From the NCBI GenBank assembly GCA_021513715.1, contig CP084167.1, positions 2,368,001 through 2,432,000 on the forward strand: 64,000 bases of DNA, written 5' to 3'. A program made the position numbers and the translations under genes. Each line of letters begins with the position of its first letter. The stretch's first letter is position 1. The notes under the pieces were generated by a model. The model made no database searches. It had not been told where the DNA came from and saw only the letters and a program-made list of their open reading frames with translations. This DNA is from Candidatus Heimdallarchaeum endolithica (GTDB lineage Archaea; Asgardarchaeota; Heimdallarchaeia; Heimdallarchaeales; Heimdallarchaeaceae). Shown one piece after another: positions 22,508 to 64,000 of the stretch.

Positions 22508-22509
22508 TA

Positions 22510-35000: not shown

Positions 35001-35092
35001 TGTTAAGATTATATAGTTTGTCAGAAATATATTCTCAAATAAAAAAGAACTCTCTGCCCATTAAAAAGAAATTAATTCTTTACATACTTTAA

Positions 35093-35393: not shown

Positions 35394-35508
35394 GTAAATA
35401 ATATGCTTAATATAGTAATAATTTTTTGATATAGGAATTAAGAATAAGATAAACATTGGAAAGAAATCGAAGAGATTTTAAAGGATTAATAATTAAAGAG
35501 GAAGAGAT

Positions 35509-38757: not shown

Positions 38758-41589
38758 ATGAAAAAGCAAACAATAATTGTTTTCTGTATTATCTCCTTGT
38801 TTTTAATCTCTGGATTAAAAGCGCAAGAAGTAATAAAAACTGATTGTGAAAAATGCAATGAAACACAACTAATAGAAGAAGGTGCGATAGTAGCTGTTAA
38901 ATGTTTAGATAAAACTGTCGATGGAGCAGAAATTGTAAATAAATACAGTAATTTAGGTTTACAGATTTGCAATGTAACTAATCATGATTTGTTTCAGGAA
39001 TTTATTAAAAAGAATAATTTAGTTTATTCTGTAGTTAACACGAAGATAAAAATGAAATCTGCTATGCTTTCGGCTCAAAAGCAGATTGGTTTAGGGTATA
39101 AAGAAGAAGATAATATTCTTCCTGATCCAAATACAACAGTAGCAATATTAGATACTGGAATTGATCTTACTCATAACTACTTCAATAGTTCTCAACTTCT
39201 TCATTGGAAAGACTTTGTTGGTTCTTCAGTGGAAGAAGGACATGATATTTATCTTTCACCTACTGATATTAATGGTCACGGAACAGCAATTGCATCTATT
39301 ATTGCTGGAAACTGTACTGTAAATAATAGTATATTAAAATTCGAGAAAAATGTCACAAAAGGGACTTTAAAATTTGTTTCATATCTTGAAGAAACAAATA
39401 ATGAATTTTTAACCGTTAACGTTAGTTGGTCATCTAATAACAACATTAGTGTGGGTATCTACGACTTAGCAGAAGAGAAGATACGATATTCCTCTGAAAC
39501 TTGTTCAAATGGTTCTTTTGTTTGGAATCGGAGGATATACAATTCAGCGAGAGAGTATCTTATCTTCTATGTAGCAAATGAGGAAGGAGAAAATGTAGTA
39601 GAGGTAAGAGGAGAGTTATCTTTCCCCACACTTAATACTTTCAAGGGAGTAGTTCCTGGAGCAAATATAGTTGTATTAAAAGTTTTAGATGATCAAGGTT
39701 ATGGAAATGTGACTACGCTCTTAGAAGCTTTGGATTATCTATTGACTATAAAAGAAGAATATAACATCAAACTAGTCAATTTGTCTTTAGGTTTTAGTGA
39801 GAGAATAGTAGCGGTAGATGATGCAGTTACAGCAATAGTAGAGGAAGGGATTTTTCCTGTCGTTGCTGCGGGAAATGGAGGAACATCGGGAGAAGTCTAT
39901 TCTCCAGGGAGTAATGATTATGCTTTAACTGTTGGAGCAGTAAATGAGAGAGCAGAAGTAGCTTATTACAGCAGTCAAGGATGTGATTGCCCAACTAGAC
40001 AGATTAAACCAGATGTTTTAGCTCCTGGGGGATCATTCGGAATGGCTTTTCGTCCCATAATTGTGGCAAAAAGTGGAACATATAACGAAGTCAAACAAGT
40101 GAAAGGAACAAGTTTTGCTACTGCATTTATGACTGGAATGGTCTACAGAAAAGTGATAGAAGAAAAATGGGAATATAATAAAGAAAATGTACGAAAAGTG
40201 AAATATCTTATTCTTATGAGTACATACCAATCAAGAGCAAATAACTATAACGGAGACAATGATGGAATAGCACAAGAACCCGATTTAACAATTTACGCAA
40301 AAGACAGAGTAGAAGGATGGGGTATATATGGCTATGCTCCAGTTGTAAACTATACTTTTTCAGAAAGCGAAAAATCTTACTCTGATGCAAAATATTTATC
40401 ACCTATACACATTAACCATTATGATGATTTTGAGTATCAAAGAATTTACGTTGCTGAATTATGGACACCTAAAAATACTACAGGAAGCTATAGAATAGAA
40501 TCTCAAACTAATGGATTTGTATCAAATTCTACTGATTATACTCCTCATCTTGAAAATTGGACTTTTGTTCCTAAATTATCTAATTCTTCAGATGAGTACG
40601 GAAATCCAATTTTCTTTACTCCAGAATTCGCTGAAAGGGAAGATTTAATTTACTTTAATTTAAGTCCTGGTAGCCATTACTACTTTGTAGTTGCAATTAA
40701 TAGATACTTAGATTTAGAACCTTATAAGAGTCTGGGTAATTTTTGCCTTGATACATTTGAAAAAGGAATGCTAATTTCAAATTATTTTATTTATAAAACT
40801 TGGTATGATATTCATCCTAAAGTAATTCTAGAAAATAATACTGTTTATTTTGATGAGGTTGTAAGAGGAAAAATCGAATACCCTCAATATACGAAAATGA
40901 TTAGATTTGAGATGAATGGAATAGATTGCTTGAATTACTTTAATGCTACAACTCATGAGTTCGAAATATATGGATTAAGTGAAGGATCATATCAATTGGA
41001 GTATATTCTTGAATTAGGAAAAACGAGAAAAATTTTCTGGTTTCCTGGGATATATGTAGATAAAAGCCCACCAAAACAATTTTTCTCATTTATTGATAAT
41101 TGCACTATAAAAGAGAATACTACCTATGGTTTTACAACAAAAGATTATTCTCCAACCAACATTACTATCTATATTGACGGGAAAAATTTTGGTTCAAAAA
41201 TTCTGGATCCAGGTTTTGATACAATAAGCATTACAATAAAACCGAAGGAATTACCTTATGGTTATCACAATCTCACAATATTCGCTGTAGATTTATTTAA
41301 TAGAACATTATTTGTCAATTATACTTTTGTAACTTTAGAAAATTACGAAGAACCTACTGAACCTACTGAACCTACTGAACCCACAGAGCCTACTGAACCC
41401 ACAGAGCCTACTGAACCTACAGAGCCTACAGAGCCCACTGAACCTACTGAACCTACTGAACCTACAGAACCTACTGAACCCAATAATTTTGGGAAATACC
41501 CATCGATGAAATATTTAATAGGTGCAAGTGTAATAATCGCATTTCTTGCTGCAGGGTTTATTTTGATATACAAGCGTTATGGAGGTTAA
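38758..41589 (+). CDS. Membrane-anchored subtilisin-like (S8) serine protease
   Basis: Signal peptide; catalytic VAILDTG, NGHGT and GTSFAT; oxyanion VAAGN; KPDVLAPG; insertion in the catalytic domain; Ig-like C-terminal domains, PTE linker, TM helix and KR tail. Confidence 0.92.
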   Translation: MKKQTIIVFCIISLFLISGLKAQEVIKTDCEKCNETQLIEEGAIVAVKCLDKTVDGAEIVNKYSNLGLQICNVTNHDLFQEFIKKNNLVYSVVNTKIKMKSAMLSAQKQIGLGYKEEDNILPDPNTTVAILDTGIDLTHNYFNSSQLLHWKDFVGSSVEEGHDIYLSPTDINGHGTAIASIIAGNCTVNNSILKFEKNVTKGTLKFVSYLEETNNEFLTVNVSWSSNNNISVGIYDLAEEKIRYSSETCSNGSFVWNRRIYNSAREYLIFYVANEEGENVVEVRGELSFPTLNTFKGVVPGANIVVLKVLDDQGYGNVTTLLEALDYLLTIKEEYNIKLVNLSLGFSERIVAVDDAVTAIVEEGIFPVVAAGNGGTSGEVYSPGSNDYALTVGAVNERAEVAYYSSQGCDCPTRQIKPDVLAPGGSFGMAFRPIIVAKSGTYNEVKQVKGTSFATAFMTGMVYRKVIEEKWEYNKENVRKVKYLILMSTYQSRANNYNGDNDGIAQEPDLTIYAKDRVEGWGIYGYAPVVNYTFSESEKSYSDAKYLSPIHINHYDDFEYQRIYVAELWTPKNTTGSYRIESQTNGFVSNSTDYTPHLENWTFVPKLSNSSDEYGNPIFFTPEFAEREDLIYFNLSPGSHYYFVVAINRYLDLEPYKSLGNFCLDTFEKGMLISNYFIYKTWYDIHPKVILENNTVYFDEVVRGKIEYPQYTKMIRFEMNGIDCLNYFNATTHEFEIYGLSEGSYQLEYILELGKTRKIFWFPGIYVDKSPPKQFFSFIDNCTIKENTTYGFTTKDYSPTNITIYIDGKNFGSKILDPGFDTISITIKPKELPYGYHNLTIFAVDLFNRTLFVNYTFVTLENYEEPTEPTEPTEPTEPTEPTEPTEPTEPTEPTEPTEPTEPTEPTEPNNFGKYPSMKYLIGASVIIAFLAAGFILIYKRYGG
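41353..41481 (+). repeat. 9-bp coding tandem repeat, (Pro-Thr-Glu)x14 linker
   Basis: CCTACTGAA/CCCACAGAG units directly before the TM anchor of the S8 protease. Confidence 0.95.
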
Positions 41590-41595
41590 TAAAAA

Positions 41596-44500
41596 ATGTT
41601 CAATAAAAAATATAGTTTAGTTAAATATTTTTCTTTAATATTTTTAACTTTAATTTTCGTTCAATCATTATCAAATTCTGCGTTAATAAAAGTACAAGGT
41701 GATACCAATAATACGATACAAATTAAAAATTTATTTCGTTCTCATGAAAATGTATTAGGGGGAATAGAGTTTTCTGTTTACTGTCAAGTAGAAACTAATG
41801 GGTCAAATATAGTTAAGGAGGTTTTGCTTAGATATACAGAAGATGGAGAAAACCATACAACAAGAATGTATTCTAATTTCTACAGCTATTATGTAGGTGT
41901 TGTCCCTGGACAAGAAATCAATAGTTCTATAACTTACTGGGTAGAAGCTAAAGATAATGAAAATAATACTGCAAAAAGCATTATTGTAGGGCCTTTAACT
42001 GTTTTTGATGGAAATTTACCTCTTATAGGCGATATAATACAAAACCCAGTTGTACCTACAAATTTGGACACAATAAACATAACAACATGGGTTACCGACA
42101 ACGTAGGAGTGAAGGATGTAAAAATTGAATATTGGATCAATAATCAAGTTACTTCAAATATTATATTAATGAACAACGATGGAGGTGCAAAATATGTGGG
42201 AAGTTTACCTACATGTGAAATTGGAACAAAAATTGTTTATCGTATTGTTGCTGTGGATACATCTCCATTACAAAATACAAAATATTCAGAAAATAGAACA
42301 GTGTATATTACAGATGGTGTTCATCCATATATTGTCTTTTATGAAAGTGACCCAAATGAACCAAATGCAAGTCAAGAATTTTACTTAATCGCAGAAGCAT
42401 GGGACTCTACAGGAATAGATAAAGTAAATGTTGAAGTAACATATAGTTATAATTCTATTCCAATAATTTATGAGATGGAAAACATTCCAGACACAAATTT
42501 ATACCAGAAGAAGATAGTGGGACAGCCTGAAAATACTAATATCACATTCTTTTTCACTGCAATAGATTCTTCTTCAGAACATTTGAATTCATCTACACCA
42601 ACTTATTCAATAGTAATTCATGACAATGTAAAACCAATAATAACTAACGTTGTACATGAGATTCCAACTTACTTACCCAATTATTACATTGAAATTAATG
42701 CTACAATCACTGATGTATCAGAGATAGGGCGAGCAACGATTTTCTACACTTATGATAATGGAGAAAATATTACTTTGCGGGGAAGTAATATGGTAAGATA
42801 TGCCAATACCAGCGTTTTTCATGCAGGAATTGAAACACAAACCGCTGGAACAGTATGTACATATTGGATAGATGTGGAAGACATTCATCAAAATAGACAA
42901 GTTACAGAGAATTATAGTTTAACTTTTATAGATGGTATCCCACCAAAAATAGATAATGTAAATATATCACCAATAAATTCTACAACAATATTAGATAATA
43001 CAACCGTACAAGTTAACTGTTCTGTTACAGATGAAAATAACGTGACAGTAAAATTAGAAGTGAAAATAGTAGATTATTATGGGTTTGAAATAGAAACAAA
43101 AACATTTGATATGATTGAAAAAGAAGAAAACATTTTCGAATACAATATTACAGCTACAAATGCTACAAATACAGTTTACTGGACAATAATAGCTACAGAT
43201 GATTCACTTACCAATAATACTGCTTGCTATTCAAGTCATTATGTGGTAGTAGATCAAGGTTTACCACAAATATTATTGTGTGATACTGAACCAAATGACA
43301 ATAGTGATACTCAAAGTATTTACCTTAAATTAGTTGATGATGGTAAAATAAAAAATATAAGAGTTAGACCAGGTATATCTGATGGTTTATTCACTACATG
43401 GTATAACCCCACTTATTATGCTCCAGAGTTATCTGATTCATATTGGGAAGGAACAATCACTACTCATTTGAATCTTTACGGGTTAACAAATTACTACTTC
43501 AAAATAGAAGTAACAGTTTATGATGTATGGGATAATTCCTTTACAGATACATACATATTTCTAATTGAAGATAAAACTCCTCCACAAATAAATATTGTTG
43601 ATTATCCTGAAACATTAAACGAAAATGAAGATTTTAACATAACTTTACAAATTGTGGATAACTCCTCTTATACAGCTTGGCTTTTATATCAAGTAAACTA
43701 TGGAGAAGAATATATTGCTCCAATTATTGATACTAATGGAAATTTAACAGGAACTATTTCTTCTTCTAGTTATGATTTTAGTCAAATTTTGTTAATATAT
43801 ATTTGTGCAGAAGATGAGAAAGGAAATAAAATTCAAATAGAAAATCCATTAACCTACGTCATTACTGATGGAAATCCACCTTATATATCAAATGATACAA
43901 CGCTATTTAGTTATGATAATGTAAAGATAGCCTACAATTCTACATTAACTGTTAGAGCTATTGTTAATGATCCTTCTGGAATTGACTATGTAAAATTACA
44001 TTATCGTTATGCTGATGGCAATGAAGGAGAAATAGACATGAATATTGATTTTTATAATCAATATAATTACTCCGTAGAATTTAATATTGACACATTAAAT
44101 TATAGAAACACTAATGTTGAGCTTTGGTTAATTGCGAGAGATAATAGTGGGTGGGTTGTGAACTCTTATGAAAGCAAGGTGTTAGTTTTATTTAGAGATA
44201 TTTTCAGTCCTTCTGGAAAAATTTTGGATTCTTTGGAATATATAGAATTAAAGAATGAAAATATTTCAGTTACTGCTCAATTTAAGGATGATACTTATAT
44301 AAACATCAATTCTATTAAAATGGAAGTAAAATATTTTTCTCTCTCACTTCAAAATATTTCTCTTTCTCGAGTTATTTCTTCCACAGGAGAGAATGATTAT
44401 ATAACTGAATTTGAGATAGATCCTAATCTTTTAGTTCCATATGTTGATCAAAATATATCACTAAGGGTTATTGTTGAAGATAGTCAAGGTAATATTTTTT

Positions 44501-47500
44501 TCTCTCAACCTCTCATACTATTAGTCAAAGATACTACATCACCATGTATTGACGCTGATTCTTGGATATATTCCCCTCTAAATCCAAATGTAGAAAATAA
44601 AGTTTACCTTCCTTCTGTATTTGATGTATCTGGAATAAATGATACATTTACCCTTGTTTATCTTAATTCTTCCGAGAGTGAAACAGAACAATTAAACACG
44701 CTTTATGATTCAAATTTAAGTAGATGGTATGTACTTGTACCTAGTTTTCGTGCTCTTACTTTAATTACTTTAAATGCTACTTTTTCAGATATACATGGTA
44801 ATATTAATGGAGTTTTACTAACAGAAACCATTACAGATTTAGAAGCTCCTGTTATCTACTCTTTGATTACTTCTCCTGAACCATCAGATAACAAGCCAGT
44901 TGAATTTAGTGCAAATGTTTCCGATGATGGTGAAATTTATCTAGTTGAATTAATTGTGGAACAAAACGGAATGAACATCTCATATTTTATGAGTTACAAT
45001 TCATCATTATATGAGACAGATATTAATTTAGACAAGGGAAGCTATAATATTTGGCTAAAAGCTGTAGATATGTGTAATAAAGTATCATATTATTCTTCTA
45101 CTCTGACAGTTATAGATAAGACTCCTCCATCATTAATAAGCGTAAATAGTTATCCCTATGGTTTTCAACCAATTGATAAAAATGATTTTTATTTCATTGT
45201 AGAAGGTACAGATAATGAAGGATTATCTCAAATTATAGTAGAATATACAATTAACTCATCTTCTTACAGACAAATTCAGTCGGTTGCTAATAATTCAGCG
45301 ATTTTCATGATTAACGATACGGAAATACTGCCTTACGACACAATTCTTCTTACAAATATAACTATATTAGATAATGCCGTTTCACCGAATTGTTTAATTA
45401 AAACTACAAACTTACCACAGTGGATAGTAGGTGATAATACTCCTCCTGAAATTTACTCACATACAGATCATAATTTTGACGGTAGTTCAACAAGTGATTT
45501 CTATCTAACAGTATATATTACTGAAAATGATGTTAGAAATCACACTAACATTGATTCAACTATTTATTACAAATATTACAATGATAGCTCTTGGATGAAT
45601 CAATCATTATATTATGGTGGAGAAATTATTGAAGAACAATGTTATTATGAAGTAATGTTAAGTCCACCTTGGAAAGCAGGAACATATGAATATTATATTA
45701 CTGTGTCACTAAATGGAATGACGACACTATATTATAACGAAACAACTCCATTAACTTTTGCAATTGAAGATTTTACTTCTCCAATCATCAAATCTGATAG
45801 CTTGGTACACACTTCTCAAGACGAGCTTCAACCGATTAATAGCAGTAGTGATGAAGATATAAATGATTTTGTAATAAGTTTCATAGTAGTAGAACATGAA
45901 ACAGGGATAGATCTTACAATTGGTGATACTAACACAGGAATAAACGTTTTGCTTAGTTTGGATAGTGGTTCTAGTTGGACAAAATATGGGGAAGTAACTA
46001 ATGCACAATTTCTCGGCAATGGAGAATATCAAATTACATATACAATATCAGCAGATGATTTAAGAACATTCATTCACCATGAAACAATTTTATATAAAAT
46101 CAAATTGAAAGATTCTGCTAATAATGAAAAAATCTACACCTCTTTTGAAGGAGATACTTTTTCTTTCAACATAAAAGATTTATATCCACCACAAATTCAA
46201 TGGATACTAATAACAAAAGAAAGCAATCCTTCTCCAAATTATTGGGCTTATGATTTAGAAAATCTACCAGAAGGATATTACCTTGTAGATACAACTTCAA
46301 CACTTAACTATTCAATAACAGGCATTTCTCCCTTATTAGATGAAGGAGATTTTGGATATTCGGATATTATAAAAATTGGTTTGAAAATAAAAGATCATAC
46401 TGCGTTTAATAACCCCCCAGATATCAGAACTTATTTCAATTATGGTACAGAAAATATTAATATAAACAAAACAATATATGGTAACTCTGAATTTTTATTT
46501 TGGGTAGAGTTTGATTTAGCTAATATCGTCGGTTCAAATAACTTCAAATCACATAAAGACACCACTGAAACACCATTTAGGTTGCAATTAAACTATTACT
46601 TTATACTTACTGATTCATATAGCAATGAACTTACAAGTCAAAATTATTCAATCTATCTTTATGATACATATGCACCAAAATTAACTAATGGTTACAATAG
46701 ACCATACTTTACAGACTTAAATGATAATGTACGAGAAGATGAAGGTAAATGTGTATTACCAAATGAGTATAATAAACTTATGTTTTCTTTTGAAGAAGTA
46801 AGTTTAGTAACACAGAACGATATTACAATTCAGTTTTACGATACAAAAGGGGAAATATTCTATTACGAAGTAAACAATAACGAAATTAATTTGGATAATA
46901 ACGGATTTCAATATTCTGTTTCAATTACAATGGATTATAACACTTTTTTAAGTTTTCCTGATGTAAGATTTTGTATAAAGATAGTTATTAGTCCTAATGA
47001 TGGTCTAATATTAGAAAAATATTATTTGTTAGATATAGAAGCTTTAAATGTTTATTATGTTAAAATGGTAGCTAATTATAATGAAATTAATTGGGCAGTG
47101 GATGGAGGAACAGCGATAGCACATGCAGAAACTGGAGATATATATCCTGGTCAACCTTTAAATGAAGTAACTATTACTCTTGGAAACTTAATGTATGAAA
47201 CACATATTGAAGTTTATGCACATTATGAAATGACTGACAAATTTAATCCTACAACTAGTGATATTGTCTCTGTATCTCAGCTACTAAAGAGTTTTATCCA
47301 AACTCCTTCTTCTGATTTAAAATTAACCAAAATAATAAACTCTTGGGATGCTAATCCTGAATATGCGGGTAATATATATCTATTTTTGAAACTTTATTAC
47401 ACGTGGGATATCCCCTCTAATGCTATCTCCTCTTCAGATATAACAGAAGGAAAATGTTACATCTACATTCATCATAATAAAGCTGTGGAAGAAGTAGATT

Positions 47501-50500
47501 TTGCTTCATCCCCTGTTAGTCATGACGAAATTACAGATGAAGATTATAATTCTGGTTCATTTCAAGTAAAACTAACATTAAAGAGTTATTGGACTTTCTT
47601 ACCTACTCTTTTAGAATACTCTACTACGCTTACTTTTGTAGACATTACAGATTCAAGCAATACTTATGATTTTAACATAATTTGTACAATGAGTGCTGAT
47701 ACAGTTTTGCAGTCAAATTTAGAATACACGAACCTATATTACCTCAGTTTAACTTGTATTTTTGAGCTTCAATTAAGTACTATTATTGATAATTTAAAAC
47801 CTGGAATTTATTCTCTGAAACTCTTAGCAGGAAACATTTTAACAGAGAAGGTCGAGATTGATACAAATAATGATGAAACAGTAGACAAAACGTTTCCTCA
47901 AAACATTGTGTGCAGTATACAAGTTACTTACTCTGATAACAATCCTCCATCTTTAAGGGAAGATCCAGAATTTGGTTTAACACAAACCTATGAGTATGAC
48001 GAGCAAGATATAAAGAGTACATCTTTTAAAATTTTAGCTGCTGATGGTTATTTAGGTCTTCAAACACCCAGATTTTATTGGAGAAAAATAGGATCTACAA
48101 GTTGGAATGAAGCAACACTCACATATTCAAACGATTTTGGAAATGAAAAAAGATATTATGCTATCCTTTACGACCAAGATTTAGGCACGGAGGGTATAGA
48201 ATACTTTTTCACAATCGAAGATGAAAGTTGGAAAACTATTTTTGGCCGGCTAGAGGATAACAATTGGAACCCAGGAATGAAATACGGTTTCAAAAACACA
48301 CCAGACGAGCCTAGTATAAGTGATAGCGACATAAAGCCTTTGCTCTCCTTTCCAATACTGCCGAACGACCAAAATCTCAAACTTTCATATGTTGGTTGTT
48401 CTCCAAGTTCTAATACTTTGTCTTCTAATGATGGAGTAACGATTACTCTGCAATTTGACAATCTTATAGGCGATTTTACTGAAAGTGCACTATTTATAAC
48501 ATCTGACGTTAATAAGAAGTTTGAAACAGATAATACACTATATATTCGAATTAAATATTGGGATCATGATTCATACGTCTATCTTCGATCAGAAACTTCG
48601 GATATAATAAATTACAACTATATCAATAAACATTCACTACAATTAACAGTAAGATTACATGATAATATATGGAATAGTATAAGCGATACAGCAAAAGAAT
48701 TCAAATATTATATTAACTCTCACTATCATTTCAAATTTGATGAATTTGATTTTAATTATGATTATGAAACAGAGAAAGGAACAAGTAGCCAATATGGTAA
48801 CTGGCAGAAAATCACAGTAGTAGATGATGTTGCTCCCAAAATAACGGATGTCTTTATTTATGATTCTAACAATGAACATTCTATAGATGAAACATATAAA
48901 ATCTGTGCTTCAGCAGAAAATTCAAACACAGGTTGGCACGTATATGAAGCATCATCATTTGAACTTCAAGTATATATGAATAAGGAGGGAACAATAAAAA
49001 CTATAGATCTAGTTGGAAATGATTATTCTGCTTATTATGCAGTATATGAAATTAAATTTAGTGATTATTATTCTGATCTTAGTTCAGGCGATACTATCTA
49101 TCTACAAATTATCGCTTGGCATAGTAATAACGATAATATGAAAGGATTTTCAGCGACAACAAGCATATCTTTTACTGATACACATCAAACTTCATTAATT
49201 AGTTCTTATAGCGTTAATCCTTATGATAGTAATGATAAAAAGGACTTAAGGTATTATTCTCATACAATAAGTTTATCCTCTACAATAAACTCTAACCATC
49301 AATTTATTGTAACTCTGGAAGATCTTGATACAGATAACACAGCATTGAGTTGTACTATAGATGTAACATTTATTCCATATACAGTAACGAATTCCTATTA
49401 TTATAAATATACATATGGTGTCTCTGCTTCCTCCATTGACACTTCTACTGCACATAGAGCTGTATTCACTTTCGATATTACACCAAGTATGAGAGTAATG
49501 AACCATAATCCTGTGGCTACTGGTTCAGGTAGGTGGGCAGGAAATATTAAGATTACAATAGATTATGGTAAAAATTTAGAAAATACAAAAGTATGTGGGA
49601 AAAATATAATTTATGAAGATTATAACTCTCCTTACTTCTATTCATCTTCTTTAGATTTATCTTCAGGAAACATGGGTAGTCAAGTCCGTTTTACTTTAAA
49701 ATATCGAAAGTGGTCTCCACCCAAATACATGACTACACTAACTAACCACTTAGTGAAAATGCAATATAAGTATGGTTCAACATGGGTTGATTTGACATGT
49801 ACAAGAATGGAAGTTCATTCTGGGGGGTCAACGGGAAGGTCATATTGGTATATTTATTTTGATATGGATGTAAAATATAGTTACGCTCCAGATAGAACAA
49901 TGTATTATCGTTATAAGATTGTTTCACAAGACCAATCTAGTACTTATTATTCTTCAAGCAAGTATTTCACTTGGAAAGATGTTACAAATCCAACAATATC
50001 AACAGTTAGTTTCGCAGGCGATGGAGACCCCATGGTCAGTCAACGCATAAATACTAGAGTAAAGGATAATTATTATGTAAGCAATGTATATATTCAATAC
50101 TATTGGAGTGGACACGGTTCCAGTAGTAGTCCCTACTCTACAACTGCATCAAAATATTCTGGAAGTAGAACAGATGGATGGTGGAAGGCGTTCATACCAG
50201 GTACTACTCCCAATAAAAATGTGTATGTATACTATAGAGTAAAGGCAAAAGATAGTTCTGGAAGAACAACTTATAGTTCATGGAAAAGTTACCATTCATA
50301 TAGTTCTGGACCAATTTTTGGATTACTACTTTCTCATGCAGTTAATCAGCAAGAAGAACGTACATATTCTAATGAAACGAATTCTGTTGAAAAAATGTTA
50401 CCTATTTATTCTTCATATATTTACGATCATAATGGAATTATTTTAACTCTCGGCACAGGAGGAATAATGGCAAATGGACAACTTGGTTTATATCTTCACA

Positions 50501-54100: not shown

Positions 54101-57100
54101 ATCTGTTATTTTAGAAGATATTCAGTCAAATGATGAAACACCAGTTATGAAGATAAATCTTTACGGAACACTCATAGATTCTTACATTTTGCCATCTATT
54201 TGTATTAATCATGCATTAAGAATTAAAAAGGAAGGATTAAACGTTCAAATAAGTTATTATGATACTTTATCGTGGAAAGATTATCTTTCTTTTCAAATTA
54301 ATCCAAATGAATTGAATATTGATGAATTAGTTTTATCTCAAGAGAAATATGAAAATTTACCTTATTCTGATTTCTATATTAATTATCTAAGTGTGGATAG
54401 ATATTATTACAATATGGGATATGAAACAAACGCTGTTCATTCTGTCCTTAATGAGGAATTTTATTCTACAATAACAACTGATTCTAACTGGATAATTGAT
54501 TATACTAATTGCAATGAAAGTGATATAGATTTTGTAAATGATGAAGATATTCTTTATCTTACTCCGAATAATCCTAATATTGCAACAGGAACAATTAATT
54601 TTACTCGAATATTAAGCAACGTTACAGATATTGAGTTTACTCTAGATCTAATGTATAGCTTAATTGCTATATACAAAACTGGTGAATTTATTATTAATAT
54701 AAATGGAGGAGATTTATCTCTTTGGTTAAAGTTTAATGGAGAAAATATTACTCTAACCTTATCTTCTCAAATCGAGTCTCAATCAACCACTATTAACAAA
54801 AACTTTTTTGATCATAATACATTGCGTTTAATAAGTTCAAGTTCAGGACTTACTCTTTATTCTGATTTTATCAAACTCGGTAAACTTCAACCTTTACTTT
54901 CTATTGATTCTTATGCAGTGTCTTTACGTTCTGTAAGTCTAATTATTCAGACAAATTTCAATTCTAACCCTATTTCTTTTGGATTAGGTCGCCTAGCAAT
55001 TTCTGATTCAGATATTACAGTATATCAGTCTCCATGGTCTGATGGTTATACTATTATTAACGATTATTTCTCTGAGTTAAATTGGGCTACAAGAGGTTAT
55101 AACTATTATACACAACCCTTTACAATAACTGATGGTTCTCAACTTCAAACAAAGTTTACTACCGAAAGAAATGATTGGTATGGAAATACTTATTCAAAGG
55201 ATTATACATTTGAAATGGATTTCTTCATGGATGTAAGATTTTCTTTTATTCTTAATGGGGATAATGGATATCAATCTTTTATTTTAGAGAATAAAATTAA
55301 ATATCAAAATCTCATTGAAGTTAGATTTATAAGCGAAAATGAGAGCATTTGTATTCAACTTTTAATACAAAATGTTGTTGTAGATTCAATAATTTATGAA
55401 CATAGTATTATAGGTGGAATCTTACGTATTCAAAGAATAGGTGATAGAGTAGATGTCTACGGTGATTGGATTTCAAACCAACACTCATTTGAAAAAATGT
55501 TCTCTTATACTAATAATCTTAAGGACATATACATTGATCGTATCAAAATTAGGCAACTATCAAAGACTTCTTCTGCACATACCATGTGCATAGATGGATT
55601 ATACCTTAATACCCGTACTCTACCTGTACCAAATCCTTATACTCCTGCAATAGGTGAATTTGTTCCACTAACATATTCTACCACTTTTCAATCAATAGAT
55701 GATTATACTTCTTATGTTTATGGAAATGTAAATTCTGAAAACGTTCCTTTCACACATACTAATGGCTTACAAACACTTTTTGATTTTGATTCTTTTTCTA
55801 ATGAATTTCGAGGACGAACATTTTACAAAGACATTGTTTGTGTGGATGATTTTATCTTCACTTTTGATATTTCAGTAAACATTAGTTATAATAAAGTAGG
55901 ACTTTTGAATATTGAATTTTTAGACAATTCTTACCAAACTGTATTTCTTATTCAAGTTATAACCAATGACACTCTAAAAATTAATCTCTATTTACGTTCT
56001 TCTCTTATTTATACTTACGAAGATGAAATATCTTCTCTTCTAACTAACTCTTTCCGCCTTGCTAGAGCAGGAACAAAAATTCTTTTTGGTGTCTTTCGAG
56101 GAGATTATTATGTTCCTCTTGGTTCTCCTCTTGAAAGTTCTGTATCTCTTCTCTCCTCTTTCAACAGCGATTTATTCGGTATGAAAATCACTCAAGCAGC
56201 TTTATTTAATAACGTTACTTCTCCTAACTCTATTGTTCTTAATAGAATAGAAATTAACACTGCAAGTAGTGATGAAAGCAATTTAATATATAGAGAATCA
56301 ATTAACGATCCTAACTTTATAGCTAGTTACGATATGTGGATAAGAAATGAAACAAAATTAAGCATTTCTGCCTTTTCTAATTATTATACAGGAGAAAATA
56401 TAACTGAAAGATTGCAACTATCGATATATCTGTTGCCAATAGGTATGCCATTTAGTATCGACCCTGAAAACTATGTGGGAAGTATAATATTCTTAGATAA
56501 TGATATTGATACTTACACTCACTCTTTGATGATAATAGGATATACGGGATTATTTGAAGTTATAGTATGTATAGATCGTATGATACCAATTAGTCTATTT
56601 ACTTTAGAAACAAGTGCACCTTCTTCTTATGCTGAAGCAGAAAAGGATTATGAATATCAGTCTGATATTTTTGGTTGGGAAGAAGAATTTGAAGGATATA
56701 CTAATCCTACAGGTTGGGACGAATCAGTTTGGACAAAAGAGATTTTTATTTCTCAAGAAACTATGACTAAAGATTTATGGACATGTTATAATACCCAGAT
56801 TCAATTCACTTCCAGTTCCTTAATCATAAAACATATTTCACAATATAAGGGAACTGTGACAATTAACATTCCTCCCGTAAATGTGTCTCTCTATCCTTTT
56901 CTCTCTTTTGATATTATGACAACGGAGAGGTTCGCTTCAGAATCAATTAGCTTAGTAATTGGTAATAAGTCCATAGATATCACTCCAACTATAGACACAA
57001 CTTTAGGTTTTACAACAGTAAGAAAGAATCTTTATGAGTTAATTTATCCTAATGTAAATGAAACTGTAGGTCAAATTACTTTTGCTATCTATAATCCTTG

Positions 57101-60100
57101 TACGATAACTATACGAAATCTACAAATCTATAAAATCTATGATTATGATTATGTTCACTATTCTAATGGAGAGAATAACTCTACAGCTGACAGTGTAGCA
57201 GATATAGGTTTTCACGTTGGGACTAACACTCTTATAGCCTTTTTACTCGGCAGATATTGTAGTCAGTCACGAGCAGAGCAAGAGTTAGATATTGTAAATA
57301 ATATAAAAGCAATGTATGATGTTCCTGTTGTATCTTTCTACTCTGATGATATAAATTTCATCTATTGGTTTAATGATAGTATAAATTTGAATAAAAGAGT
57401 TCTTTTAATAGTTTTTGATGAAATTCCTACAAAACTTTTAGATACATATTATTACTATGATGATTTTGGCAGACCTTTTGAAACTTCTTTATTAGAAGAT
57501 TTTCAGCGCAATGGCAATTACCTTTTATGGATAGGTAGTGCTCCATTTTCTAAAGGAGTCAATCCTGAGGGTAATTTAATTGATTTAGATTATGAAGATT
57601 ATAAGCAATTTAGCGGACAAATAGTGGAAACAGACATTGATCTTCAAGTTAACATTAGTGATTTTGGAGAAGAATTAGGTATATCACCCTACTCTACAAG
57701 CTGGTTTGTTAATGTTTCTTCTATGCCTTCCTCTTTAGGTGAGTGGATAGGTGGATATGTCAACATCACGGGATTAATTTATAATTCTTCAGAACATGGT
57801 AATGACATTCTTCTACATCCTTACAATTATTATTTCCATATGTTATCTTCCTTCCTAGGACATAATTATGGTTTTCTAGGTGTAACTGATACCTCTATTC
57901 TTGTAAGATTGCTAGATATCGTTTTTATTCCTCCAACACAATATGATAAGATCTTTGGAAACTTGATATTAAAAGGACCTATATTTTTAGAAAAACGTTG
58001 GTCATTTGAAGATCAATTCCAATTTTTATATGTAGGAACAACTGACCTCGTTAATGTAATAATTGATAATAAAAGTTTAACTTACGCTTTTCCTGATATT
58101 TTAGAATTGGAAGAATATAGTATCTCTAGTGTTGATGGTTTTTCTTTGGTTACAAATAGCTCGAATATAGTTTCCATAGATTCGATTACTTTTATCAATC
58201 AAGGAGCTTCGACCACTCCTTCTGTTTTTAATTTTGACGAGCCTAACTCTTTAGATTTTAAACAGAACTTTGTCCCAATAAGTGGAGGATTTGATTATGA
58301 TAATGGTGATGAAAACTATGTCTTAAAATGGAGAAATAATCTTAGTCAACCTTATTCTGCTGCTCTTCTTGACACACAAAGTTATGGAGATAGTGTGATA
58401 CAATTTGAAATGGGTGTTTATCCTACTGGAGATGAAACTCATATAGGAGGAATAATGCTTAATATTCCTGTTATAAATTCTTCTTCTCTCTTCTTTGATT
58501 CACTTTTCATTGGTTTTAAGATGGTTGGTGGTGGAGATCTAACTTTTCCCTTATCACTCTTTGTTGCCCGATATTATTCTCCTACTTCATATACTGTGCT
58601 ATATGAAAAAGAAATAACAAAATTAGGTAACTCTTTTGGAGGAAATAATGATATTCTTGCTCCTCTGAAACTTACAATTATTAAGACAGTTACTTCTACA
58701 GGGTTGAAACTTTCAATTTATTCTAAAGTCTATCGGGTTTATCCTTACTATGGTGCAGATGAACTACTAGAAATACAAATTGAGAATGATGGAATTTATA
58801 ACTGTAAAACTGCTTGGTTTGGTCAAGATTATTCTTTTGATTACGATATGAGAGGAACAGGAAAAATAGGAATCTTTACAACTTCTACCTCTTTTACTTT
58901 TCATCACCTCTCTGTTTACACTACTATTGCAAATACTTGTGGTGATTATGTAAATCTTGCATCGGGGACAAGTCATATCTCATCTGATGGATTATGGTTA
59001 GAAGGAATAATGGAAACAGCATTCCAAGAAAATGTTGATACAAACTATATTTTCTCTATTTTTGATCCATCACAAAGTGTTGCTTCATTCGATAAGAAAA
59101 AATATGTTGAAGTATCTATCGTTAACACTCTCGGTCAAAAAAGAAGCATAGTGTTTAGCCTTGGAGGTTGGGGGACTTATGTAGATAACGAGTCTATTGT
59201 AGGACAACCTTTGTATAGTTATAGAACTGTTGATCCCTTTTATTCAATTAGTTCAAAAGAATATGATGGAACGTATATGGTTATTGTAACGGTGGATAAA
59301 GGAGAAATTGTTTTCAAAGTATGGGAAAGAGACTCTCTCTCAACTGTTTATACTAAAGAGTTTGTAGGATTTGAAGCCATTAACTCTGAAGCAGAAATAA
59401 AGCTACGTATTTCTACCATTAATACCGTTGCATATATTGATTACATTGCTAACGGCAAAATGCAAGCTTCTGACCTTTCTTTTGCTTATGGTAGAGGATT
59501 GTTAGGTGCAGGAGAAGTATCATACTGGTTAAAGGGAGACACACGTTACTCTCTAGTTTTAGACAATTCTCTTATTACTTCTAGTTATAGAGTTTCTAAT
59601 GAGTCTTTGAACACTCTCTATTCTACATTTTTGTTAAATGAGACTTCAAATTTAGGATATGTTAGTAAATACAACTCCAATACGGTTTATAATATCTCAA
59701 TTATAGAAAACACACTTTATTTCAATAACAATAACATGAATTTTACATTTGTCAATGAACATTGGTATGACCTTTCTTATTCCTTTAACTTGACTTATCA
59801 AATTTTATCAATTACTGATACAAGTAAGAATGAAGCTTGTCCTGTTGAATGGGAATTCTATGTTAATACTTCTATTGTAGATGGAACTGAATATAGTATT
59901 GATATTTTTTCTTTTGATGGAATTGTATTAATAGATAAATTGTCTTTACCTTCTCTTTCTTCCAACTTTTATGACAAAGATTTAGGAGAATGGACTTATG
60001 ACACTAATTATAACGTTCCTTCCTTCTCTAACATTTACTCTAACACTTCTAGCTATCTACAATTAATGATTTATTCTCTCATGGGGCCTGTAAATGTGAC

Positions 60101-63100
60101 TGTTTTTGGTGATGGAAAATATATTGGTAGCACATTACTTGAATATAATCCTTTTTCATCTTACTCTCCCGCTATAATAAATCTTGAAAACTTTGATACA
60201 ACAGGATTACATAAATATACTTTATACATAGATAATGTGGTAGAGTTTGATAGTTTGTGTTTAGGAGAGACATTGCCAATCACAGAATTTCTTTACACTG
60301 CCCCTGATGATGACAATAGTTATACAGACTCTCGTTTCTCTTTAGACTTTTCTGATTCTCCTTATTACAATGAGAAATTAGGAAAAGTTCTCTGTTTGCA
60401 TAATGCAGATAACTATTCCGTTTCTATTTCTAATCTTACCTCTGTTTCTTCTTTAGAACTTTACTATAAGATTCCTTCAGAAGATAAATTAACTATCACT
60501 CTTCCACTCAAAGCTACGTATGTTAATGACTATACTTATGATACTCGCAATATTCTTTTTGAGCTTATACTATCAGGAGATGAAACTAAAGATACAGAAA
60601 TATATACACAAGGATATACAAATTACCAACTTATCCAAGTATGGGATACTATTACAGATGACAATATTTGGCATTATTATCAATCTGCTTTTACTTTTTA
60701 CCTTCAATCTGTGGAATACATGAGCGTAGGACAAAGTAAAACTTACAACTTGTACAACAATTTTGATGTTTCTTCTCCTACTGACTCTCTTTACAATCTC
60801 TATTCTCTTTCTGCAATAGAAAGTTTTGATAATTATAATCTTAGTTTTATTGCTACAACAACAACGAATGTATTTATTGACAGTTTTTCTCTTTATACTC
60901 CCCCTACTCCCACATTTCCTGCACTGGACTTAAGAACCTTTGCTCTTTCCTCTTCTGCTCATTGGAAATCCGTAACTACAAACAATTTAGGTAGACTGGA
61001 TTTTGGTGATATGTTCAATCTTACTCCTTACGATGATTTCTCTTTCTATTTCTCTTTCTCTTTAGAAACTATAGCTGAATGTAATGGCTTCCTCAGTATT
61101 TCTACTAACTTAGCTTTTACATTTCTCACACCCACTATGTGGGATTACCAACCTAAATTTATCGATCAACCTACATCAACTTTACTTGCTATTCCTATTT
61201 CGGCTATAGGTGGACTAAATAGATTTATTTTTAGAGTATATAATCATGGACTGTTAAATCTTACAAATACTACAAGCCTTTATTTCCAGATAAATGTGGG
61301 GTTAGACCATACATTTACTCCTCGCCTTAACTCCATTCAACTATCTAAGAATGAACTAAATCAAACTTATATACCCGAATGGGTTGTTTCTACTCCTTCT
61401 ACGTGGATTGATCTAGAAGGTGAATATACCTCTGCTAGTGATTGGGTTCCTGTTTACAACAACGCTTCCTCTAGTTGGGGAACTTTTGATATTTTACAAC
61501 GTTCCGTTCCTCTCGCAGGAGATGTGGTAATAAACAATGTAACTTTATCAGAAGAAAGCTTTGAGTATTCCCAAACAAATAACTATGGACAAATACAAAT
61601 TCTCAATGACTTCGATCCTGAATTATATAGTAATAACACACAAATTATGTGTACATTTTATTACTATCTTTTTGCTGATATCACATCAGAAAATAATTTC
61701 AGTTTAATTTCCAATCTTGATATAAGTAATATTACTGCTATTGTTTTTGACGGATTAATTATTCATCAACCTACTTCTTGGAATGGTAGTAGCTTTTCTA
61801 CTCTTGTTCCTATCAATAATACAGAAAACCACTTCCAATTAGATATTTCTTCTAATCCATACACTATTTCCAATAATAGTTATCTAGGTTACGAACTCTC
61901 CACAAATTGGCACAAAAAAGGTTTCCATTCAGTTACCTTCTTCCTAAATGGAGTAAATCAATATACACATAATTTTTCTATGGTTATTGATGGATTAACG
62001 GATATCTTAGTACCTTTTGCTTCTGCTACTGATTATTCGTTGGATATTTCTGATAAACTCTCCCAGGAAAGAATCTATATAACCTTAGATGAATATAAAG
62101 GTGGAAAAAATATTCCATATTTCAGTTACGTAGATGTAGCCCGTAGACCTTATGCTTCAAAAGATTATCTTTACTCTGTTGTAAATTTTGATGGAATAGC
62201 TTTTCATGTAACTCGAATGGTTTGGATAGGTGTAGCTGATTATAACACTCAAGATAAAATAGGTTATGCAATTTGTGCTATTATCACTGATCAAGGAACT
62301 AACCATGAAGTACACGAACTTTATGTGCAAAAAATAGAAGTGATGTCTGCTGTTCCATGTTCTACTGATTTAGAACTAGAAGAGAAAGCTCAAAGTATGG
62401 GCTTATCTCCTACTTCTTCCTTATCTCATAAATTGGGTTTATCACAAATGTATATAGCTAGTGCTATTTCCAGTTCAAGACACAAGTCAGTAGTGTTAGG
62501 ATTACAAGAATCTAATTATAAATTAGAAGTAATAAACAACACAGTTACTCTTTTCTTGACAAATATTAAAGATATTGAATACTGGAATACAGGAGAAGAA
62601 CATCTACACACGGGAGTTCTTTCTAATTACAATGTCACAATTGATAATCATACTTTTTCCAACTTTAATGCTACTCAAATGAAAATAGTGCTACAAGATA
62701 GACTGATCACAATCAATCTCCTTAGTCAACAATTACATATTCTCAGTGGAGAAAATGTTTTTGCTTATATATTAGGTGAAGATTCTCTTTCTGTTTCTTC
62801 TGGAAGTTCTAAACTAATTGCAAGTAGTACAGGGCTTTTCCTTATCTCTGAAGTAACTCCAATAAGTGCTGACAGTCGTCCTCTCTCTTCTTCAGACTCA
62901 TTAATGTCTGCTCAAGAATCGCTCTATGAAATGGCAGAAAATATAGATCTAGAAGGATATTTTATCGCTATTGCCCGTTCTCGCTGGAGACAATTCCATG
63001 ATTTCATTCAAACTAACGTTCTTTGTCCACTTAAAACATTAGCTAAATCATCGAATTTGGTTGTAAAATACATATTTAATCAATTATTTACCCACAACAG

Positions 63101-64000
63101 CACATTTTGGAAAAATGTACATCAAAATTGGAAAGCTTATGTTATTCTTCTCTCTTCAATAGCCTTTACCGCTTACCTTTATTATGCTTGTATAACAATG
63201 GGTACCACTTATAACCCTCTCTTTTTCTATGTCGGACAAATAGTCAAGTTTTCGCTTGTTGTTCAAGGTTCGATGTTTGTTGGAATGGTTCTATTAGATT
63301 TGTTTAATAAACCTAACTTTATAGCTGAAGGACTTAGTTTCCAATTTAGTTATATGATAAATAAGATAAAAACAATTTTTTGCAACGTTGCTAAATTTAT
63401 TACCTCTGTGTGGAATGTTCTTTGGGACAATAATCTCACTTTTAATGATAAACTTGAATATCTAAAAGGACTAGCAAAACGTGCTCTTGATACTGTTATT
63501 TCTTTCTTCAAGAAAATATATAAGTACCTTACAGTTGCAATGAAAGCCTTGTACGGATTTATTAAAAATGGTGTAAGAGATATTAGCTATCAATCTTTAT
63601 CTTATACTACTAGACGTTTTCTCTTCATTTTACTTTGGATATTTACCGTCGGAGGGTGTACTGGACTTTCTAGTACATACGAATATGATTTTGTTAAATC
63701 AAATACAGCAGATCTTCTCCATCTAAATTATCTCGCTAACCATATTGATGCTCTAGATAACAATATTCTACTCAATTATTATGGAGGAATAGACTTCAAA
63801 GCAGGTTCAGAAAACCTATTTATGACTTTACTTATGTCATCAGCTCATAGTTTCGCTAAAACTGTTTCTGGAGAAAATAATTATCCTTACTTTGATGAAG
63901 AACAATGGTTAAATAATGATACTCGAGCTTATTGGGCAACAGAATTCTTGAGAGAATTGGGATTTGTTGTACAAGTAAGTGAAACAGTAGGTGCAAACGT
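51105..64000 (+). CDS. Giant protein 2 of element B (>4298 aa, 3'-truncated by window; not in ORF track)
   Basis: ATG overlaps the previous TGA (ATGA). Starts MKKIITNKKIKSLKVSFLTIIIIIGVTFG; the same frame reads ...YWATEFLRELGFVVQVSETVGAN at the window end; shares WKG.Y, FTP, FSG, NFIASYD and EW..STP with 5732..22357. Confidence 0.88.
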   Translation, partial: MKKIITNKKIKSLKVSFLTIIIIIGVTFGDITHVISDYSYHPTNEFYFFHDRYFSVNNTFGWKGDYDIKSKSLSILDDHSIKKSVDISTWNGYSPLLLTVRTNTESSDAIDQLLIYDSNTSSIIMEKNNINVLRSVRIDYYIFPSTEYITIKIKDSDSNVYDCNIKEVALFTPQYHQIDLLSNTYAVPEEDYPLARWYETEYGYVTDQYLEHNARVVKTNEVEYGFSELSFYFEVPSVYMPTLNYMFSSAKETEQTIYQIDISVLDFDARTSYYTLKSEKEIYDSYPTINAVDLSSYAGHYINLKVKITWSNNIELSKLGLIINYLFIDGIVNEDYYTPGDTIAAEEYSKSLYKSKVKEIDDFTFIEGEGYVSYSNPLLMIDNNVEGGYLSYQIQNSVSVYEDDFYDIDLDGWYYNTNYTSNVDSSLYTDTLTNETKTTVHYDQNFNDSYIIDTSFTILGTSESRQSTFTILFNYDNNTHSGYGLRFGYGDEEKGYISLIRIINNLETELYFRNEEILKDVSYSISIIYSKNGTTVEISNSETINVYDSAFNNGFLGFAFDTIKAQITSVSVQMRDEYAIDRLHFRAMNTGTENVDVNFYVDQIDGNGLSRQLLAKIVLEKGKGLKQYTCPINPELIGFRVILSVEIVTPFIFPIYLDTIQFSGATPFGYTRYAWDYYRKGSKAYVDHDKLYYDGNEPSAYETPFDFTDSTDEIFYPKFGMNTPWQKIYDYEDSSNLFTSFDKFGDWKGIIDVTKSIHFSLTNNTNSMYGVKSLAPFQISGDFDIHLTFSSTSSFSFYDVLQVGLKNNEGDTFLAVGRKGDIYYLLIDGQERKVVSLTQSLTDFVFHLQWNNGTLTFEFGEKEIFSLFLDEPALYQSISNIELVIASQDFFDTTLKSVSAAYKNGYTTLRHRIFEEKFTDKSFSQWEVENSSTDYARIVNSQLYSYFGNSSDWHGVTLSHKQSLGLNFILEYGFDVLQSDKESKGKQKLSLMSNETEVLSVILEDIQSNDETPVMKINLYGTLIDSYILPSICINHALRIKKEGLNVQISYYDTLSWKDYLSFQINPNELNIDELVLSQEKYENLPYSDFYINYLSVDRYYYNMGYETNAVHSVLNEEFYSTITTDSNWIIDYTNCNESDIDFVNDEDILYLTPNNPNIATGTINFTRILSNVTDIEFTLDLMYSLIAIYKTGEFIININGGDLSLWLKFNGENITLTLSSQIESQSTTINKNFFDHNTLRLISSSSGLTLYSDFIKLGKLQPLLSIDSYAVSLRSVSLIIQTNFNSNPISFGLGRLAISDSDITVYQSPWSDGYTIINDYFSELNWATRGYNYYTQPFTITDGSQLQTKFTTERNDWYGNTYSKDYTFEMDFFMDVRFSFILNGDNGYQSFILENKIKYQNLIEVRFISENESICIQLLIQNVVVDSIIYEHSIIGGILRIQRIGDRVDVYGDWISNQHSFEKMFSYTNNLKDIYIDRIKIRQLSKTSSAHTMCIDGLYLNTRTLPVPNPYTPAIGEFVPLTYSTTFQSIDDYTSYVYGNVNSENVPFTHTNGLQTLFDFDSFSNEFRGRTFYKDIVCVDDFIFTFDISVNISYNKVGLLNIEFLDNSYQTVFLIQVITNDTLKINLYLRSSLIYTYEDEISSLLTNSFRLARAGTKILFGVFRGDYYVPLGSPLESSVSLLSSFNSDLFGMKITQAALFNNVTSPNSIVLNRIEINTASSDESNLIYRESINDPNFIASYDMWIRNETKLSISAFSNYYTGENITERLQLSIYLLPIGMPFSIDPENYVGSIIFLDNDIDTYTHSLMIIGYTGLFEVIVCIDRMIPISLFTLETSAPSSYAEAEKDYEYQSDIFGWEEEFEGYTNPTGWDESVWTKEIFISQETMTKDLWTCYNTQIQFTSSSLIIKHISQYKGTVTINIPPVNVSLYPFLSFDIMTTERFASESISLVIGNKSIDITPTIDTTLGFTTVRKNLYELIYPNVNETVGQITFAIYNPCTITIRNLQIYKIYDYDYVHYSNGENNSTADSVADIGFHVGTNTLIAFLLGRYCSQSRAEQELDIVNNIKAMYDVPVVSFYSDDINFIYWFNDSINLNKRVLLIVFDEIPTKLLDTYYYYDDFGRPFETSLLEDFQRNGNYLLWIGSAPFSKGVNPEGNLIDLDYEDYKQFSGQIVETDIDLQVNISDFGEELGISPYSTSWFVNVSSMPSSLGEWIGGYVNITGLIYNSSEHGNDILLHPYNYYFHMLSSFLGHNYGFLGVTDTSILVRLLDIVFIPPTQYDKIFGNLILKGPIFLEKRWSFEDQFQFLYVGTTDLVNVIIDNKSLTYAFPDILELEEYSISSVDGFSLVTNSSNIVSIDSITFINQGASTTPSVFNFDEPNSLDFKQNFVPISGGFDYDNGDENYVLKWRNNLSQPYSAALLDTQSYGDSVIQFEMGVYPTGDETHIGGIMLNIPVINSSSLFFDSLFIGFKMVGGGDLTFPLSLFVARYYSPTSYTVLYEKEITKLGNSFGGNNDILAPLKLTIIKTVTSTGLKLSIYSKVYRVYPYYGADELLEIQIENDGIYNCKTAWFGQDYSFDYDMRGTGKIGIFTTSTSFTFHHLSVYTTIANTCGDYVNLASGTSHISSDGLWLEGIMETAFQENVDTNYIFSIFDPSQSVASFDKKKYVEVSIVNTLGQKRSIVFSLGGWGTYVDNESIVGQPLYSYRTVDPFYSISSKEYDGTYMVIVTVDKGEIVFKVWERDSLSTVYTKEFVGFEAINSEAEIKLRISTINTVAYIDYIANGKMQASDLSFAYGRGLLGAGEVSYWLKGDTRYSLVLDNSLITSSYRVSNESLNTLYSTFLLNETSNLGYVSKYNSNTVYNISIIENTLYFNNNNMNFTFVNEHWYDLSYSFNLTYQILSITDTSKNEACPVEWEFYVNTSIVDGTEYSIDIFSFDGIVLIDKLSLPSLSSNFYDKDLGEWTYDTNYNVPSFSNIYSNTSSYLQLMIYSLMGPVNVTVFGDGKYIGSTLLEYNPFSSYSPAIINLENFDTTGLHKYTLYIDNVVEFDSLCLGETLPITEFLYTAPDDDNSYTDSRFSLDFSDSPYYNEKLGKVLCLHNADNYSVSISNLTSVSSLELYYKIPSEDKLTITLPLKATYVNDYTYDTRNILFELILSGDETKDTEIYTQGYTNYQLIQVWDTITDDNIWHYYQSAFTFYLQSVEYMSVGQSKTYNLYNNFDVSSPTDSLYNLYSLSAIESFDNYNLSFIATTTTNVFIDSFSLYTPPTPTFPALDLRTFALSSSAHWKSVTTNNLGRLDFGDMFNLTPYDDFSFYFSFSLETIAECNGFLSISTNLAFTFLTPTMWDYQPKFIDQPTSTLLAIPISAIGGLNRFIFRVYNHGLLNLTNTTSLYFQINVGLDHTFTPRLNSIQLSKNELNQTYIPEWVVSTPSTWIDLEGEYTSASDWVPVYNNASSSWGTFDILQRSVPLAGDVVINNVTLSEESFEYSQTNNYGQIQILNDFDPELYSNNTQIMCTFYYYLFADITSENNFSLISNLDISNITAIVFDGLIIHQPTSWNGSSFSTLVPINNTENHFQLDISSNPYTISNNSYLGYELSTNWHKKGFHSVTFFLNGVNQYTHNFSMVIDGLTDILVPFASATDYSLDISDKLSQERIYITLDEYKGGKNIPYFSYVDVARRPYASKDYLYSVVNFDGIAFHVTRMVWIGVADYNTQDKIGYAICAIITDQGTNHEVHELYVQKIEVMSAVPCSTDLELEEKAQSMGLSPTSSLSHKLGLSQMYIASAISSSRHKSVVLGLQESNYKLEVINNTVTLFLTNIKDIEYWNTGEEHLHTGVLSNYNVTIDNHTFSNFNATQMKIVLQDRLITINLLSQQLHILSGENVFAYILGEDSLSVSSGSSKLIASSTGLFLISEVTPISADSRPLSSSDSLMSAQESLYEMAENIDLEGYFIAIARSRWRQFHDFIQTNVLCPLKTLAKSSNLVVKYIFNQLFTHNSTFWKNVHQNWKAYVILLSSIAFTAYLYYACITMGTTYNPLFFYVGQIVKFSLVVQGSMFVGMVLLDLFNKPNFIAEGLSFQFSYMINKIKTIFCNVAKFITSVWNVLWDNNLTFNDKLEYLKGLAKRALDTVISFFKKIYKYLTVAMKALYGFIKNGVRDISYQSLSYTTRRFLFILLWIFTVGGCTGLSSTYEYDFVKSNTADLLHLNYLANHIDALDNNILLNYYGGIDFKAGSENLFMTLLMSSAHSFAKTVSGENNYPYFDEEQWLNNDTRAYWATEFLRELGFVVQVSETVGAN

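Follow-up and report, generated by a model that had tools for sequence, protein, structure and literature searches.

A subtilase and two giant exported proteins on an aloposon-type element of Candidatus Heimdallarchaeum endolithica: a candidate polymorphic nuclease-toxin delivery operon

What do the twin giant proteins of Candidatus Heimdallarchaeum do? Aloposons were named for the tandem genes of this genus that encode proteins of 3,000-6,000 aa (Wu 2022, PMC8813620), and the text of that paper gives these giants no function. The question is addressed here for a stretch of 64,000 nucleotides, termed the window (positions 2,368,001 to 2,432,000 of contig CP084167.1, abbreviated C1), in the genome of Ca. 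Heimdallarchaeum endolithica, a single contig of 3,326,783 bp with 31% GC. Three twin-giant pairs are present in this genome: element A, which occupies the start of the window, element B, which carries the S8-giant 1-giant 2 operon described below, and element C, located ~123-160 kb upstream. On balance, the favored reading of the element B operon is an exported, polymorphic system for delivery of a nuclease toxin, carried on an aloposon-type element.

The operon is composed of three genes:

38758-41589, plus strand: S8 subtilase, membrane-anchored, 943 aa (Pfam Peptidase_S8, E 3e-37)
41596-51108, plus strand: giant 1 (Otus), 3170 aa, with a signal peptide, Ig-like repeats and a C-terminal transmembrane anchor
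51105-64000 and on, plus strand: giant 2 (Ephialtes), 6099 aa, window-equivalent end 69404 (C1 2419105-2437404)

Giant 2 extends 5.4 kb beyond the end of the window, and positions past 64,000 are given as window-equivalents. An earlier note on this DNA had described three tightly coupled genes whose products are all exported or anchored. Both descriptions hold: a 6-nt gap is followed by an ATGA overlap, signal peptides are present in all three proteins, and the S8 protein and giant 1 have C-terminal anchors. The diverged pair with a 2-nt gap that the note had placed in element A is likewise seen, with a homology that is distant. The giants of element A are true homologues of those of element B, with BLAST E-values of 1e-5 to 5e-6 over single segments, N-terminal profile matches at E 3e-7 and a core in common. 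The giants of element B are the ‘Otus/Ephialtes’ aloposon pair (PMC8813620), a locus type that is already known.

The S8 protein comprises a signal peptide, a PTE repeat and a C-terminal transmembrane segment. Its catalytic triad (D132/H174/S452) and oxyanion residue (N373) are intact, and it is predicted from these residues to be an active subtilase. Upstream of the gene, the window contains a degenerate fragment of a multicopy IS (37633-37930, 72%), and the ~510 bp directly 5′ of the S8 start share 79% identity with their element C equivalent. An S8 gene lies directly 5′ of giant 1 in five of seven elements (B, C and three elements of G002), and the order S8-giant 1-giant 2 recurs in two genera. 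No S8 gene is found upstream of giant 1 in element A, in its twin in G001 or in a fourth G002 element. G001 is a sister species with intact giants and a single-contig genome of 3.08 Mb, and this complete genome contains no S8 protein of the subtilase subfamily at E<=1e-30. In the element C copy, Asp replaces both the catalytic Ser and the oxyanion Asn, which makes it a dead copy; a predicted active protease is encoded in four of the seven elements. Judged from these sequences, the S8 gene is conserved but dispensable. The proposal in the earlier note that the apparatus is matured by its own subtilase is thus not general, failing in element A, its twin, one further element and the inactive copy of element C. 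The broader proposal of a dedicated exported apparatus is supported by the gene order shared between two genera and by the lack of a detected conjugation or virion module (see below). An entry ‘HeimV2_peptidase’ appears in PMC8813620 in the source data only, and the text does not treat the S8 protease as a conserved part of the element.

Giant 1 matches Big_7 (E 3e-5), and its D-x3-P units start every ~103 aa. Giant 2 has a more complex architecture, comprising an N-terminal signal, an acidic, S/T/N/Y-rich stalk over the initial ~4,000 aa, hydrophobic segments (aa 4013-4064 and aa 4172-4190), a family-wide core and, after the core, a K/E-rich tip of ~1,500 aa. The following features were located within it:

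52512-52814, plus strand: CBM66-like (levanase) carbohydrate-binding β-sandwich, stalk aa ~470-570 (profile E 1.2e-5 to PDB 4azz)
63132-63674, plus strand: hydrophobic hairpin and amphipathic helices, aa 4010-4190
64122-64694 (window-equivalent, past the window end), plus strand: family-wide conserved core, aa 4340-4530

The amphipathic helices show aromatic periodicity reminiscent of phage tape-measure proteins, a likeness that reaches a PHROG tape-measure match only in the homologue P0011 (E 5e-10) and not in giant 2 of element B itself. The hydrophobic segments are marginal and vary between subfamilies. The core is the segment common to all homologues (five positions are invariant across 24 sequences), and it marks the boundary of both sequon loss and tip swapping. 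Its AlphaFold model has a pLDDT of 57. A suspected resemblance of the core to PT-TG was not confirmed by Pfam, and a tyrosine-recombinase-like pattern at the C terminus of giant 2 was rejected, this tail not being conserved. When pieces of giant 2 were scanned against Pfam, NCBIfam, PHROG and PADLOC, nothing significant was returned; Pfam found no match in aa 1-2600, ESM Atlas gave no usable match, and fold searches with low-confidence models were uninformative, yielding generic helices only, with no nuclease or fusogen match. The family is rare, with 13 representatives among 1.8 billion proteins; it is present in 11 of 400 Asgard genomes, all of one class, and every homologue of known source is from Heimdallarchaeia. 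Word searches for further homologues gave nothing new. Other large exported proteins are encoded in the genome, a coupled pair of 2086 and 2665 aa and a single protein of 4125 aa (C1 320312-334569, 1084136-1096513), and these have no BLAST similarity to the aloposon giants.

Comparisons of close homologues show that giant 2 changes abruptly at the core. Five close pairs share ~90-100% identity up to the core and 35-84% from 0-300 aa past the core on; a sixth pair drops from ~75% to 30-57%. Fourfold-degenerate sites drop as well, for example from 90-98% to 44-60%, and this fall at silent sites indicates that diverged alleles have been exchanged, not just that the protein has changed. Together, these breaks indicate that tips have been swapped by recombination. 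In one homologue, the stalk is nearly the same as that of the element C giant, and the tip is unlike that of element C (25-44%); this tip is 56-74% identical to a stand-alone fragment located elsewhere in the genome. Fragments that comprise only a tip and are related to the element C giant lie at C1 1899004-1905800 (minus strand), beside a ribosomal protein region and with an LRR gene between them. The protein P0012 is likewise a stand-alone tip that begins at the core, and it and the tip-only fragments may be either cassettes or deletion remnants. At L040 (1232-8730), a 1751-aa protein runs from the conserved core on, lacks a signal peptide and contains 0 sequons against 13 expected; its gene overlaps that of a secreted protein, which weakly matches an HExxH metalloprotease.

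The tip of element B contains a residue pattern suggestive of a nuclease active site:

65742-66284 (window-equivalent), plus strand: putative PD-(D/E)xK nuclease domain (E4893, D4995, E5024, K5026)

The B-type tips are ~20% identical, and 55 of 1562 alignment positions are invariant, including E4893, G4993, D4995, E5024 and K5026. The sole invariant G-x-D and the sole invariant E-x-K of this alignment form one pair. One invariant equivalent pair is found in each of the A, C and c7 subfamilies, 490-610 aa past the core, or 500-525 aa in the narrower of two estimates, and visual inspection shows the pair in the g17 type as well as in two more distant homologues; no clear motif was seen in P0009, P0007, P0012 or the G044 homologue. 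Against a profile built from 30 Mrr-type nucleases, the B-type motif window ranks first of 37 (E 5.7e-4, at a match probability of only 29%, over 67 aligned columns that run beyond the catalytic strands) and the C-type window ranks between first and third of 32. The A, c7 and g17 types are neither first-ranked nor significant, and the B-type and g17-type tips do not match significantly when their profiles are compared. The predicted secondary structure matches the order helix, Asp-bearing strand, and strand with ExK, and the AlphaFold model of the region (pLDDT 42) lacks the quality that a fold search requires. The tip probably contains a PD-(D/E)xK nuclease, and the ~1,000 aa that follow this putative domain have no explanation.

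These data bear on a payload-free reading, in which the giants are adhesins or a cell-bridging or fusion structure and the motif is due to chance. The Ig repeats and the CBM66-like domain would suit such a role, as would a tip without a family match, but lineages with tips that fail to align have the motif at a common offset, and the tips are swapped, making this reading very improbable.

The distribution of N-x-S/T sequons provides a view of where the tip resides. Before the core, 420 sequons are seen against 438 expected; in the tips of 13 proteins, 13 are seen against 130 expected, a tenfold reduction, and four control motifs (reversed and shifted) occur 118-133 times in the same tips. The tip of element B giant 2 has 1 sequon against 12.2 expected. 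The sequences in this pool are related, such that pooled probabilities overstate the effect, which is present in every subfamily. Genome-wide, cytoplasmic proteins carry 0.98 of the expected number of sequons and exported proteins 1.39, and an oligosaccharyltransferase gene (AglB/STT3) is present. A cytoplasmic domain never meets the oligosaccharyltransferase and would therefore be expected to have a neutral sequon rate; the depletion thus suggests, as the most likely case, a tip that crosses the membrane and has to stay unglycosylated. Based on this pattern, the tip is probably exported and not cytoplasmic. Selection against N-glycans has been hypothesized for proteins threaded into the apicoplast, in a statement quoted in PMC9713705. 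Sequon loss reports export and intolerance of glycans, not translocation as such, since a part of giant 1 is also free of sequons and interfaces can mimic the signal:

47503-49905, plus strand: part of giant 1 that lacks sequons, from 1200 to 400 aa ahead of the C terminus

In all eight homologues compared, giant 1 is devoid of sequons between 800 and 400 aa from its end, and this membrane-proximal segment is possibly a cleavage boundary or an interface. It ends near a conserved Gly-hydrophobic motif ~300 aa before the C terminus.

The sequon data also speak to the proposal that giant 2 is a membrane-spanning antiviral sensor, with a stalk that senses outside the cell and a cytoplasmic nuclease that kills the infected producer. 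Hydrophobic segments do lie between the acidic stalk and the K/E-rich tip, element B carries a PD-T7-4-like gene, and an immunity gene would be unneeded. A cytoplasmic nuclease, however, predicts the neutral rate of 0.98 where 0.1 is seen, and the marginal, subfamily-variable nature of the hydrophobic segments adds to making a sensor improbable.

The context of the operon is that of an element bounded by repeats, and its features are as follows:

29776-29893, minus strand: intron-containing tRNA-Val(GAC), adjoining the left repeat
29951-29997, no strand assigned: left copy of a 48-bp direct repeat, degenerate (83%), bounding element B
30080-31206, minus strand: PD-(D/E)xK (Cas4-like) gene in two ORFs, split in element B and intact in element C
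31224-33895, no strand assigned: aloposon upstream module, with a 99-aa putative HTH regulator (minus) and 91-aa, 378-aa and MinD/ParA proteins (plus)
34056-37465, no strand assigned: variable cargo, with a 314-aa protein of unknown function, a PD-T7-4-like anti-phage protein and an Mrr-like nuclease
69481-69528 (window-equivalent): right copy of the 48-bp direct repeat, bounding element B

The two repeat copies enclose ~39.6 kb. Similar to described aloposons, element B has tandem giants in the 3,000-6,000-aa class (3170 and 6099 aa), homologous to those of elements A and C, and four consecutive upstream genes that include MinD/ParA. In aloposons, the tRNA used for integration lies 3′ of the giants, whereas in element B the tRNA-Val is upstream, and neither ARAGORN nor Rfam detects a tRNA on the downstream side. 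The 378-aa and MinD proteins are 88-90% identical to their element C counterparts. In the cargo, the DUF4145 protein (window 35509-36228, plus strand) matches PD-T7-4 at E 2e-66, and the adjacent gene (36593-37465) encodes an Mrr-like nuclease domain. Element A matches Aloposon2/3; element C is probably HeimV2, to which it is likened by IbrA/B-like genes near tRNA-Arg(TCT); and element B is, by elimination, probably Aloposon1.

The flanks of the other elements vary. Element A is flanked by a 194-bp duplication of a tRNA-Asn region that is inverted, not direct (88% identity; C1 2352059-2352249 and 2390415-2390608, the second being window 22415-22608). The 38-kb unit of element C lies between 95-bp direct repeats of 97% identity (C1 2207402-2207496, 2245392-2245484), with a third, partial copy near C1 2204700. 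The site occupied by a twin-giant element in G001 is empty in this genome (C1 2102666-2103649), the Cas4-like gene being kept beside tRNA-Gly, and remnants of MinD and a 460-aa gene lie 10-15 kb away. A 140-codon fragment, 71% identical to the end of a B-like giant 2 (C1 1204882-1205304, minus strand), has tRNA-Pro(GGG) on one side and an IS element on the other and is the remnant of another insertion.

No machinery for transfer was recognized within these elements. A conjugative element with a T4SS would be expected to encode VirB4 and VirD4, and an integrative element or provirus a tyrosine or serine recombinase; element B has none of these. VirB4 is absent from the whole genome, the VirD4-like, integrase and resolvase matches all lie outside elements A, B and C, and tyrosine/serine recombinase matches occur only at 29.7, 317 and 406 kb of the genome. 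The element proteins scanned have no significant PHROG match to tail or capsid proteins and none to pilins, an indirect check for capsid and pilin. These results agree with the statement in the earlier note that no VirB4/VirD4, capsid or pilin gene is visible.

In an alternative that draws on this context, the giants would form a conduit for transfer of the element itself, and the tip would be a pilot protein that cuts the tRNA target in the recipient for integration or homing. Elements that lack integrase, resolvase and conjugation ATPase, yet are bounded by repeats and located at tRNAs, invite such a model; the helices are tape-measure-like, an immunity gene would be unneeded if insertion destroys the target, and sequon loss is equally compatible. 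The tip, however, is the most variable part of the protein and, unlike a recombinase, has been exchanged through recombination; no tRNA was detected close to several homologous operons, the giants are intact although the Cas4-like gene is broken in elements A and B, and the recombinase-like tail is not conserved. A transfer machine is accordingly considered unlikely. Of the three roles that the earlier note had offered for the apparatus, contact-dependent effector delivery has gained specific evidence, and element transfer and cell fusion have gained none.

The toxin-delivery reading raises the question of immunity. No immunity gene is found 3′ of the giants in elements A, B or C, which is counted against a toxin, as is the retention of one fold by the tip, with no switching of toxin class. 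A signal-less LRR gene is next after giant 2 at seven of the 18 loci with downstream DNA, on the same strand at four and on the opposite strand at three, one of the latter being preceded by a probable transposase remnant. The loose LRR pattern used is passed by <=3% of the genes of the genome. LRR immunity proteins have been described, and some toxin systems directed against distant organisms lack immunity genes (PMC3482391). The LRR genes may also simply be common island cargo.

The closest parallels are found among bacterial toxins. In the S8-PTS of Gram-positive bacteria (PMC9424270), a secreted S8 gene lies 5′ of a signal-bearing toxin with a variable C-terminal nuclease, an arrangement matched in five of seven elements with giant 1 intervening. 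The S8-PTS toxins have a BetaH domain and an adjacent immunity gene, and element B lacks a downstream immunity gene; the archaeal elements differ further in an extra anchored subunit of 2,000-4,500 aa, a putative toxin of 4,600-6,200 aa and a dispensable S8. Polymorphic toxins with Tox-REase domains, including the CdiA type (PMC3482391), share a long N-terminal stalk, a conserved pre-toxin segment, a recombining C terminus, an E/D/ExK active-site pattern, stand-alone tip fragments and LRR candidate immunity proteins. They differ in that no pre-toxin or Tox-REase Pfam match is found here, the tip, of ~1,500 aa, retains a single fold, and immunity genes are inconsistent. Element B would work like a polymorphic toxin and would not be a classical member, given that no immunity gene is adjacent to its operon. 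The logic of the Streptomyces umbrella toxins (PMC13274773), with a protease-fold subunit, glycan-binding modules and a toxin-tipped stalk, is also alike; those are secreted particles with ALF repeats and trypsin-like domains, whereas here two subunits are membrane-anchored and no homology is seen.

Export signals, membrane anchors, gene order, exchange of tips and avoidance of sequons can be read from the sequences, and from these nuclease activity, delivery, a target and processing by the protease are inferred. In the proposed mechanism, giant 1 would act as an anchored scaffold that displays giant 2 at the cell surface. The stalk of giant 2 would bind glycans on the target cell, the helical region and core would insert into the target membrane, and the unglycosylated tip would be threaded into the target, where its PD-(D/E)xK domain would cut nucleic acid. 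The S8 protein could serve in accessory processing or as a structural subunit, inactivated or lost in some lineages. The producer could be safe if the tip leaves unfolded via Sec, if the target is non-kin, or if LRR proteins in the cytoplasm, from adjacent genes or from other loci, protect it. A more daring and rather doubtful version is that the operon represents an unrecognized Sec-dependent injection system of Heimdallarchaeia with a nuclease module of ~1,500 aa which, at its boldest, would also cut the tRNA target and so spread an integrase-less element.

Neither a toxin role for aloposon giants nor such a delivery chassis was found in the literature searched. The analysis narrows a 31-kb operon down to one breakpoint and four named residues, all amenable to in vitro tests, and the test for sequon avoidance can be reused to look for translocated cargo in other archaeal giants. 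The toxin reading would give a function to the aloposon giants, which have been functionally open since 2022. If true, Heimdallarchaeia would possess a delivery chassis without a detected homologue outside the class, and close archaeal relatives of eukaryotes would attack neighboring cells.
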